Positions 43,736-46,851 of a stretch of DNA of 64,000 nucleotides are shown here, in pieces. How positions within the stretch are numbered: position 1 is the stretch's first letter; every line of letters starts with the position of its first letter. Made by a program: the position numbers and the translations under genes. This DNA comes from Enterobacteria phage GEC-3S. The stretch is taken from sequence record HE978309, one strand, 5' to 3'. Below the pieces are notes generated by a model. It searched no databases, had not been told where the DNA came from, and saw only the letters and a list, made by a program, of their open reading frames with translations.

Positions 43736-43973
43736 AGTTTACCCACTCAACAAGATCTTTACCTAACTCGAAAGCCCATTCTCGGTCCTGCTTTACGTTT
43801 TGTAGGTATGGACTTTCCGACACTCGACGAAGTGATGTTGTCGTAACAAGAATGATCCCAGGAATGTTCGGATGTTCCTTTCCATATACAATAGGACGCG
43901 AGTCACTATCAATACCTTGTAAGAAGGTGTATCCTGAATCACTTAGAATCATATACTTTTTCATTTCACACAT
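43635..43973 (-). CDS. hypothetical protein (112 aa)
   Basis: ATG 43973 with SD GAGGAA. Confidence 0.45.
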   Translation of the reverse strand: MCEMKKYMILSDSGYTFLQGIDSDSRPIVYGKEHPNIPGIILVTTTSLRRVSESPYLQNVKQDREWAFELGKDLVEWVNCEDKNQRNHEKKIARLEHRRKLDEIKNRILQSM

Positions 43974-44230
43974 CACAGTTTCCTCAACCAGTTATTAAAG
44001 CTAGCAAACCATGATGCTTTTCGTGCTTCTTTGACTTTATGTGCACGTAAACCACTGAAACACCATTCATAATCATCACTGAAACATGATTCAACAGGAA
44101 CACCCGCATTTCGTAGTTCTCTGGTCGTTATCATGAATCCTTGACATAATGGGCGACCTTCAACAATGATAGGAAGTTTAACTTTTTCCATGAAAGTATA
44201 CCCAGCACGGTCAATAATTTCAATCTTCAT
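43973..44230 (-). CDS. paralog family C protein (85 aa)
   Basis: MKIEIIDRAGYTFM...; ATG with SD GAGGATTATATT. Confidence 0.5.
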   Translation of the reverse strand: MKIEIIDRAGYTFMEKVKLPIIVEGRPLCQGFMITTRELRNAGVPVESCFSDDYEWCFSGLRAHKVKEARKASWFASFNNWLRKL

Positions 44231-44248
44231 AATATAATCCTCAATTAG

Positions 44249-44446
44249 TTATACCGCCCAGGCTTCATTTGCACGAAAACACCATTCATATTCAGGAAAA
44301 TAACCTTTAATTGGTACGCCAGCTTTTTGTAGTTCCTGCGTTTCTACAAGATAATCAAGCCCATAACGACGACCTTCCACGATGATCGGAAGTTTAACGC
44401 CATTCATGAAAGAAAATCCACCGTCATCAATAATTTCAATTTTCAT
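44249..44446 (-). CDS. paralog family C protein (65 aa)
   Basis: MKIEIIDDGGFSFM...; SD GGAGA. Confidence 0.5.
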   Translation of the reverse strand: MKIEIIDDGGFSFMNGVKLPIIVEGRRYGLDYLVETQELQKAGVPIKGYFPEYEWCFRANEAWAV

Positions 44447-45329: not shown

Positions 45330-45339
45330 AGTATAATCC

Positions 45340-45624
45340 TCAAATGGTAGTTTTGCGAAGATGGTCGTTACATGCTTTTAATGCATCAGTCGCGGTGTCA
45401 TAGCGAGTATTATCATAGCACCAGTAACCATCTGTCAACTGATAAATCAATCCATCTTTTTTAGCTTCGATGAAAGATAACTCTTTGAAAGTTTCTACTT
45501 TCTTTGCTGATACTCCACGGCGTTTATAGAGTTTAGCTAAAATGCGTTCAGCTTGTTCCTCTTTATCACCAGACAGATCCCAGATGATGTTTCGGATATG
45601 CTTGATTAATTGTTCAGTGGTCAT
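45340..45624 (-). CDS. hypothetical protein (94 aa)
   Basis: ATG with leader AAGGAGAATCAAAG. Confidence 0.5.
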   Translation of the reverse strand: MTTEQLIKHIRNIIWDLSGDKEEQAERILAKLYKRRGVSAKKVETFKELSFIEAKKDGLIYQLTDGYWCYDNTRYDTATDALKACNDHLRKTTI

Positions 45625-45653: not shown

Positions 45654-45681
45654 ATTATAGCATTGTGATTATCTTTGTCAA
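45654..45681 (-). promoter_or_regulatory. early promoter (TTGACA-N16-TATAAT)
   Basis: directly downstream of terminator 45699-45718. Confidence 0.5.
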
Positions 45682-45698
45682 CACCCAAAAACAAAAAA

Positions 45699-45718
45699 GG
45701 CTACCCCGAAGGATAGCC
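45699..45718 (-). terminator. intrinsic terminator after the glycine-rich gene
   Basis: GGCUAUCC-UUCG-GGGUAGCC + UUUUUUGUUUUU on minus strand. Confidence 0.55.
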
Positions 45719-45725
45719 CATAAAA

Positions 45726-46505
45726 TTACACGCGAGCACCGTAGATCGTGCCTACTTTATCCCAGCGAGGGGCATTGCCAGTAACAGCCTTACCAGCCGC
45801 ACCACCGTTATATTCCGATCCCTGTCCACGGATATTACATTTACCACCAGCACCACCAGCATCACCACCGTTACCGCCATTATATACACCGTTTACAGAC
45901 CCTTTACCTGGCGCGGAAATAGTACCAGCAGTAGCACCCTGTTCCATATTAGCAGACCCACCGGCAGCACCAAACGGACGCCCACCGCCACCGCCAAAGG
46001 TTAATCTCATTTGTGAAAAAGGAGAATAATACCCACCGCCGCCGCCGCCACCACCACCGCAAATAGCGCCGTTATTTGTGATGCGTAAGCGTGTGCCTAT
46101 ACCGTTGTTAATTGCATTACCACCAGCGCCACCAGCGGAGTTATTGCCACCATTACCACCACGCCCCCAAACATGAACACCTGGGTTAATGATCAATGTT
46201 ACATATTCGTTTGTTAACGAGCTAGGGAAGTCAAGACAAGGAACTCCAGTAGATTGGGAAACAATATTACCCGTGATAGTAATTACTACCGGAGTAGATC
46301 CCTGTGCTTTCATCCAGTTAATAAGAGTGTCTTTATTGTAAGAGTTACTAGCACCAATGCTATAATGAATCTCTTTAGAGCGTCCGACCATTGCCGACAT
46401 ATACGCCGGACGACCTAAGCGAACAGCTTGCATTGCGGCGCTCATCCACCGTTGACCAGTCTCGGACACCGCAGATGATCCTACCCATCCAGAAGATATT
46501 GCCAT
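45726..46505 (-). CDS. glycine-rich protein (259 aa)
   Basis: ATG with SD GAGGAA; C-terminal two thirds dominated by GGxGG repeats including G9; function unknown. Confidence 0.6.
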   Translation of the reverse strand: MAISSGWVGSSAVSETGQRWMSAAMQAVRLGRPAYMSAMVGRSKEIHYSIGASNSYNKDTLINWMKAQGSTPVVITITGNIVSQSTGVPCLDFPSSLTNEYVTLIINPGVHVWGRGGNGGNNSAGGAGGNAINNGIGTRLRITNNGAICGGGGGGGGGYYSPFSQMRLTFGGGGGRPFGAAGGSANMEQGATAGTISAPGKGSVNGVYNGGNGGDAGGAGGKCNIRGQGSEYNGGAAGKAVTGNAPRWDKVGTIYGARV

Positions 46506-46521
46506 AAAATTTCCTCACAAG

Positions 46522-46541
46522 AAAAGCCCCAATTAAGGGGC
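46522..46541 (-). terminator. intrinsic terminator just upstream of the glycine-rich gene SD
   Basis: GCCCC-UUAAUU-GGGGC + UUUUCUU on minus strand. Confidence 0.5.
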
Positions 46542-46559
46542 ATTGATTGATAATATTAC

Positions 46560-46781
46560 TTAGATGACCTCTGCTTCACCATCCAGGAAGAAAGACCATG
46601 TTTTGTTAGGATAGCGAAGCGCCCATGATTCAGCAGTTTTAACACCAGCTTCGAACAATTGACGGCTGGTTACTTTAGCCATACCATCTTCGATGGCAAC
46701 GTTTTCAATAATCATCGGGTACTTAGCGCCACGCATGAAACCGAAACCAGCGGAAGATTTGATAATTTTAACAGTTGCCAT
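46560..46781 (-). CDS. paralog family C-like protein (73 aa)
   Basis: MATVKIIKSSAGFGFM...; leader GGAGAATCAAAA. Confidence 0.5.
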   Translation of the reverse strand: MATVKIIKSSAGFGFMRGAKYPMIIENVAIEDGMAKVTSRQLFEAGVKTAESWALRYPNKTWSFFLDGEAEVI

Positions 46782-46822: not shown

Positions 46823-46851
46823 ATTATGCAATAACACCGGAACGCTGTCAA
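46823..46851 (-). promoter_or_regulatory. early promoter (TTGACA-N17-CATAAT)
   Basis: followed by leader ACACACATCGAAACGAG. Confidence 0.5.

Follow-up and report, generated by a model that had tools for sequence, protein, structure and literature searches.

The open reading frame at 45726..46505 on the minus strand of the Enterobacteria phage GEC-3S sequence (record HE978309) is almost certainly gene 38 of an RB49-like phage (Krischvirus), its product being a T2/T6-type adhesin located at the distal end of the long tail fibre, where it selects the host receptor. The analysis covered a 64-kb stretch of this DNA (the window). It establishes the family membership and domain layout of the protein, the position of its gene and the signals that flank it, and none of the evidence speaks against a gp38 identity.

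The g38 gene starts with ATG, ends with TAA, is preceded by a Shine-Dalgarno (SD) sequence (AGGAA, 46511..46515, minus strand) and encodes 259 residues, 60 of which (23%) are glycine. The original prediction of a gene for a glycine-rich protein of this length, made for the span 45699-46541 that lies between the outer edges of the two flanking hairpins, thus concerned a real and intact gene. The prediction placed the glycine in the C-terminal two thirds of the protein. The C-terminal part is indeed rich (34% glycine in residues 116-259 versus 9.6% in residues 1-115) and contains the predicted run of nine, but it makes up some 56% of the chain. Glycines occur in twelve runs of at least two, among them the run of nine (residues 150-158, nucleotides 46032-46058) and a run of five (residues 171-175). 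Because of the GGN codons, GC content rises to 0.53 across g38 as compared with 0.37-0.42 in its surroundings, and runs of these codons also account for short tandem repeats within the gene. A 93-residue proline-rich open reading frame on the plus strand (45748..46029) reflects the GGN codons of g38 read from the complementary strand and was rejected.

What kind of protein does g38 encode? Its product matches the Pfam family GP38 (PF05268) over residues 45-259 and the entire profile (positions 1-218 of 218; E 9.1e-73, 245.1 bits, cut-off 25), and the family Gp38_N (PF21721) over residues 1-40 (E 3.9e-18, 65.6 bits, cut-off 25); a Pfam search up to E 1 returned no families besides these two. 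It also matches PHROG 2056, 'tail fiber protein; host specificity' (E 4e-102), and, through its residues 1-257, residues 1-247 of Salmonella phage S16 gp38 in the PDB entry 6F45_D (E 2.3e-50). The second structure match, 9V85, is a GFP fusion of a 'receptor-recognizing protein gp38'. Using tblastn, homologs were found in 793 phage records, where they are mostly annotated as tail-fibre adhesins. The Pfam, PHROG and 6F45_D matches bear out two suggestions made beforehand, namely that this is not a core replication protein and that it might be a fibre protein. They also place it in a known structural protein family, an outcome that had been named beforehand as a refutation, and this disposes of its supposed novelty.

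The layout of the protein is that of the gp38 family. The gp38 adhesins are monomeric; their glycine-rich motifs, of which there are five, pack as a polyglycine-II sandwich, their four hypervariable segments are the receptor-binding loops, and the monomer docks at the tip of gp37 (PMC12032242). The window protein likewise has a conserved N-terminus, containing the gp37-attachment domain (Gp38_N; codons 1-40, 46386..46505, minus strand), a conserved C-terminus, and five glycine-rich motifs alternating with four hypervariable segments (codons 114-240, 45786..46166, minus strand, delimited from alignment and composition). Its glycines cluster at residues 114-129, 146-158, 171-183, 208-221 and 232-238. 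In an alignment of six adhesins that included the S16 protein, the cluster glycines were invariant and the segments between clusters were variable, with indels. Homology to solved gp38 leads us to predict that codons 114-240 form a polyglycine-II sandwich receptor-binding domain. AlphaFold models of RB49-like gp38 have already been published (PMC9569957). S16 gp38 is homologous to the window protein over its full length (49% identity) and shares the attachment domain, the glycine motifs and the conserved C-terminal strand, but has other hypervariable loops and another host, and the window protein is known from its sequence.

An analogy between the glycine-rich region and colicin or bacteriocin translocation domains, or needle proteins, had been proposed as well. 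The likeness is superficial and is one of glycine-rich composition, nothing more. Since gp38 is the sole family matched, even with Pfam taken to E 1, the analogy is without support and was rejected. Moreover, each glycine motif can be matched, alignment column for column, to its counterpart in S16 gp38, and such motifs make up an ordered polyglycine-II sandwich rather than a disordered tract (PMC12032242). We give a translocation domain or needle protein practically no chance of being the right identification.

Could the product instead be a gp38 of the T4 type, that is, a non-virion chaperone of tail-fibre assembly? Some homologs are indeed recorded as 'distal long tail fiber assembly catalyst' or 'tail assembly protein', labels that arise because names were carried over from T4 gene numbering. 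T4 gp38, however, has been described as an unrelated chaperone (PMC3157838), and the full-length match to the adhesin family and to the S16 adhesin structure argues against a chaperone function. So does the location of mutations that alter host range: extended-host-range mutants of RB49 carry E230K, or E230K with Y231S, in gp38 (PMC9569957). A chaperone of the T4 type is thus very improbable, and we retain the adhesin identity.

By tblastn the adhesin is 99.6% identical to gp38 of phage E26 and 82.5% identical to that of RB49. Residues 1-111 are of the RB49 type, differing from RB49 gp38 at residues 4-5 only, and the last 14 residues are RB49-type too. The central hypervariable block, YYSPFSQMRLTFGGGGGRPFGAAGGSANMEQGATAGTISAPGKGSVN-GVYNGGNGGDAGGAGGKCNIRGQGSEYNGG, differs from that of RB49 by substitutions and two indels and is nearly identical, in DNA as well as protein, to that of the Tequatrovirus phages JK38 and JLBYU22. 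As judged from these alignments, the allele is a chimera with RB49-type ends and a Tequatrovirus-type hypervariable centre. Exchange between adhesins at the glycine-rich motifs has been described previously (PMC3157838, PMC12032242). Over residues 6-259 the Tequatrovirus proteins (JK38, JLBYU22, slur02) are 87-90% identical to the one in the window, but they begin MAIVGVPGW..., and their gene lies between g37 and t with other flanks.

JK38 is reported to be Tsx-specific and RB49 OmpA-specific, and gp38 swaps between T6-like phages change the receptor (bioRxiv 10.64898/2026.04.02.716166). From its JK38/JLBYU22-type hypervariable region one might guess, with low confidence, that the GEC-3S allele targets Tsx. 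An identity of 88% to a Tsx binder is no more than a hint, since single residue changes in a hypervariable segment can switch the receptor (bioRxiv 10.64898/2026.04.02.716166) and the receptors of RB49 itself are OmpA and O antigens (PMC9569957, bioRxiv 10.64898/2026.04.02.716166).

Over the roughly 1.9 kb around g38, the nucleotide sequence agrees to 97% with that of Krischvirus phages such as JEP8, which indicates that the window is from an RB49-like Krischvirus. All credible large open reading frames in the window are encoded by the minus strand. The arrangement of genes in RB49 matches that of the window (tk, rI, rI.-1, five small ORFs, g38, then further small ORFs), and the RB49 record says of g38 (RB49p079) that it is 'similar to T2 and RB69 gp38 adhesin'. 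The neighbors of g38 in the window are accordingly small early ORFs on the rI/tk side, not the g37 gene that directly precedes it at the usual site; no g37 homolog was found in the 64 kb. In RB49, g37 occupies 151.7-154.7 kb, with a 79-residue ORF and then the holin gene t after it. That g38 is out of place in these phages is already known: it was described in RB49 as 'displaced to a distant locus' (PMC3157838) and in Krischvirus as 'approximately 55 kb downstream of gp37' (bioRxiv 10.64898/2026.04.02.716166), and the existence of two g38 positions within the genus was noted by Lutz et al. The Krischvirus orthologs (RB49 RB49p079/NP_891650, phi1, JSE, E26, JEP8, FL37/FL38) are the same gene at the same displaced site, between homologs of ORF080 and ORF078, and share the flanking hairpins and promoters of the window.

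The ORF080 homolog, a 73-residue ORF of PHROG 7345 directly upstream of g38 (46560..46781, minus strand), is apparently co-transcribed with it. It is one of three PHROG 7345 paralogs, of 73, 65 and 85 residues (46560-46781, 44249-44446 and 43973-44230, all on the minus strand), that flank g38 on both sides and have no assigned function.

RB49 gp37 (979 residues) has a C-terminal Peptidase_S74 chaperone domain (residues 871-930), as expected for a gp38-capped fibre. According to the published mechanism for the family, the gp37 trimer would form and its C-terminal chaperone domain would cleave itself off. A single gp38 monomer would then dock on the exposed gp37 tip via the N-terminal attachment domain, and the four hypervariable loops, projecting from the compact sandwich, would bind an outer-membrane protein or O antigen.

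Is the displaced gene still functional, or is it a decaying relic? Its setting among small early ORFs of unassigned function and its lack of a late promoter could be read in the latter sense. However, the reading frame is uninterrupted and preceded by a good SD, there is a single gp38 match per genome among the records listed, g38 is at this site in 42 of the 58 matching Krischvirus records, and diversifying exchange is limited to the hypervariable segments. In addition, it is in gp38 that the host-range mutants of RB49 are altered (PMC9569957). We consider the chance that g38 is a non-functional relic to be negligible.

The gene is flanked by two hairpins. The downstream one begins 6 nt past the stop codon and consists of GGGCUAUCC-UUCG-GGGUAGCC (45719..45698, nine pairs, -14.2 kcal/mol); with the UUUUUUGUUUUU that follows, it makes up an intrinsic terminator at 45688..45719 on the minus strand (9-bp stem, UUCG loop, U6GU5 tail). 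The RB49 stem is a perfect 9 bp, whereas the window version has two G-U wobbles. The upstream hairpin, GCCCC-UUAAUU-GGGGC (46541..46526), has five G-C pairs, a 6-nt loop and a predicted energy of -10.0 kcal/mol; it is followed by UUUUCUUGUG, with which it would constitute a weak terminator or attenuator (46516..46541, minus strand), and then by the SD (46515..46511) and the ATG. Both sites have the G+C-rich stem-loop, U tract and intergenic location of rho-independent terminators. The terminator predicted directly after the stop codon is therefore where it was said to be. The one predicted about 20 nt upstream of the SD exists as a hairpin, but this ends 10 nt and begins 26 nt before the SD. 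Describing the gene as insulated by terminators is correct insofar as there are hairpins on both flanks, but overstated for an upstream element as weak as this one (5 bp, -10.0 kcal/mol).

Terminator-like sites in the 3-kb region are not more numerous than chance would give (2 found versus 2.2 expected), and the fold of the upstream hairpin region is unremarkable when compared with shuffled sequences (z = -1.07). The two hairpins are nevertheless credible because they are placed exactly in the intergenic gaps, are conserved, and correspond to TransTerm calls in RB49. Both are conserved in the relatives examined (RB49, Makalu_001 and E26), in all of which the upstream one is identical. The RB49 calls, in a table from 2006, are 45339-45360 ('9 bp', confidence 100, 'RB49ORF078c<--38') and 46164-46179 ('5 bp', confidence 90, '38<--RB49ORF080c') (PMC1524935 Additional file 6).

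How, then, is g38 transcribed? Promoters and terminators were scanned for as consensus matches, whose counts are not above shuffled expectation. The 330-bp gap after rI.-1 (48036-48363) holds a strong bidirectional terminator (48106..48133; 12-bp stem, -19.5 kcal/mol) and, after it, an early sigma-70 promoter found in the consensus scan (48093..48065, minus strand), the two forming a unit like the PeSLs discussed below. Next in coding-strand order are four small ORFs, a sigma-70-type early promoter with the pattern TTGACA-17-CATAAT (46823..46851, minus strand, 11/12), which is the nearest recognizable one upstream of g38, and the ORF080 homolog. These are followed by the weak hairpin, g38, the UUCG terminator, and a perfect sigma-70 promoter, TTGACA-16-TGcTATAAT (45654..45681, minus strand, 12/12 with TG), that would drive the next gene (45340..45624). 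Between the upstream hairpin and the g38 ATG there is no promoter of a recognized type. A hairpin hiding the ribosome-binding site of g38, as in T4 e and soc, was considered but is not supported, the predicted GAGGA/UCUUC pairing being weak and the 141-nt region having z = +0.85 against shuffles.

The nearest T4-type late promoter, TATAAATA (49086..49093, minus strand), is upstream of rI and 2.58 kb from g38, and the 48106..48133 terminator stands between the two. This promoter corresponds to Pl:48756 of RB49, which in the published RB49 HMM scan is the sole late promoter in the area, with none near g38 (PMC1524935 Additional file 5). In RB49-type late promoters the first base may be either A or T (PMC1524935). 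There is no (T/A)ATAAATA between 49086 and the g38 ATG, the only one-mismatch site in that interval being TATGAATA at 47202-47195; exact and one-mismatch searches near g38 with TATAAATA gave nothing usable.

From the promoter and terminator matches, g38 looks like the end of an early-type transcription unit. The unit would extend from the 48133-48106 terminator to the 45719-45698 UUCG terminator and be fed by the sigma-70 promoters at 48093-48065 and 46851-46823. As the last cistron, g38 would be reached by read-through of the weak hairpin (46541-46526), which would act as an attenuator that lowers but does not block g38 expression. The earlier suggestion that g38 depends on terminator read-through is therefore a reasonable one. 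Canonical g37-g38 loci support, by analogy, a leaky upstream hairpin. In the short g37-g38 gaps of MIZ5, JLBYU22 and JK38, similar hairpins (-9.8 to -10.8 kcal/mol) lie directly before the g38 SD and no separate g38 promoter is apparent, so that g38 is presumably co-transcribed with g37, transcription passing the hairpin. A dose of gp38 lower than that of gp37 would, we infer, suit a monomer that caps a trimer. Production of a virion protein from early-type promoters is atypical for T4-like phages, and this counts against the model.

The alternative is that g38 is transcribed late, either from the rI late promoter (49093-49086) through both the 48133-48106 and 46541-46526 hairpins or from a non-consensus late promoter. 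At its usual position g38 belongs, by gene order, to the late tail-fibre operon, and the closest TATAAATA upstream of g38 shares its strand; RB49 late promoters, moreover, tolerate A/T at the first position (PMC1524935). A late transcript from rI would, however, have to cover 2.58 kb that include the 12-bp, -19.5 kcal/mol terminator, the interval offers no (T/A)ATAAATA and a lone one-mismatch site (TATGAATA, 47202-47195), and the published RB49 HMM scan has no late promoter near g38 (PMC1524935). We view late transcription as a real possibility, although an unlikely one. A literature search on Krischvirus transcriptomics and on expression of the displaced g38 found nothing relevant.

The rI late promoter has a feature of its own. 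In the tk-rI gap (49055-49101, minus strand) there is an inverted repeat, CCCCAGATT...AATCTGGGG, whose 5' arm shares nucleotides with TATAAATA and whose 3' arm covers the rI ribosome-binding site (GGGGGAATGACTTATG). Transcripts reading through from tk might hide the rI ribosome-binding site, whereas late transcripts, which start inside the loop, could not. Such a switch resembles those of T4 e, soc and I-TevI. The g38 gene has no promoter/inverted-repeat arrangement of the rI kind.

The presence of g38 at the displaced site varies within the genus. Of 58 Krischvirus-type records that match the upstream junction, 42 continue into g38; those that match only up to the ORF080 stop include, among the records listed, Skers, LF73P4, G37-3, kvi, FL04, MIZ4 and G2494. 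Roughly three in four of the Krischvirus genomes sampled thus have the hairpin-g38-terminator block (45688-46541), and the remaining quarter or so cleanly lack it. The empty site in kvi (L006:2780-2900) and G37-3 (L009:790-900) has one textbook PeSL with ORF078 directly after it, its sequence being TAA-t-TG-TTGACA-CGGGGAGAAATCCCCG-TATAAT-SD-ATG. PeSLs are recombination-prone promoter/stem-loop units of RB49 and phi1 (Arbiol et al. 2010, PMC2839356, which does not mention g38). At the tk-side locus, the indel has one end just past the stop codon of ORF080 and the other at the -35 box of the PeSL, and with these bounds it is PeSL-associated. The downstream flank of g38 resembles the published PeSL cassettes in having all their parts (45719-45625: hairpin, T-rich tract, TTGACA-16-TATAAT [12/12], AAGGAG and ATG). 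The upstream flank does not, since the GCCCC/GGGGC stem-loop stands alone, with no -35/-10 pair before the ATG. Because neither flank is a copy of the other, a simple PeSL-by-PeSL excision fails to give the empty site, and the indel is at most a PeSL-associated event.

In MIZ5, g38 (62% identical; L007:4480-5262) is at the usual place, in the order g37-g38-small ORF-t, and gp37 is just 42% identical to RB49 gp37. After g38 in this phage (L007:5262-5330) there is a stretch, AAAAAGAATTAAGGAAAACTCCC..., that repeats the end of an RB49-type g37 and the intergenic gap following it (L003:8640-8700). The AAAAAGAATTAAGGAAAACTCCC repeat would mark the right-hand boundary of the segment in which a g37-g38 module was replaced in MIZ5.

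Taken together with the exchange of variable loops between the g38 of this block and the adhesins of other genera, the clean presence or absence of the block raises the question of mobility. The adhesin gene may be under the control of sigma-70 promoters and a leaky hairpin and not of a gp55 late promoter, and the hairpin-g38-terminator block of about 0.87 kb may be a host-range cassette that moves in the manner of PeSLs. We put this forward tentatively, as a proposal that could well prove wrong.

The gp38 family, the displaced locus and both flanking terminators are already on record, and the regulatory and cassette questions were not first raised by this window. Identifying gp38 here assigns the correct function to 45726..46505. 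What interest remains concerns the manner in which a structural gene functions when it is located among early genes and preceded by a hairpin, and the possible mobility of the cassette that carries it. In most T-even-like phages gp38 is the main determinant of host range, which makes it a target for the engineering of therapeutic phages.
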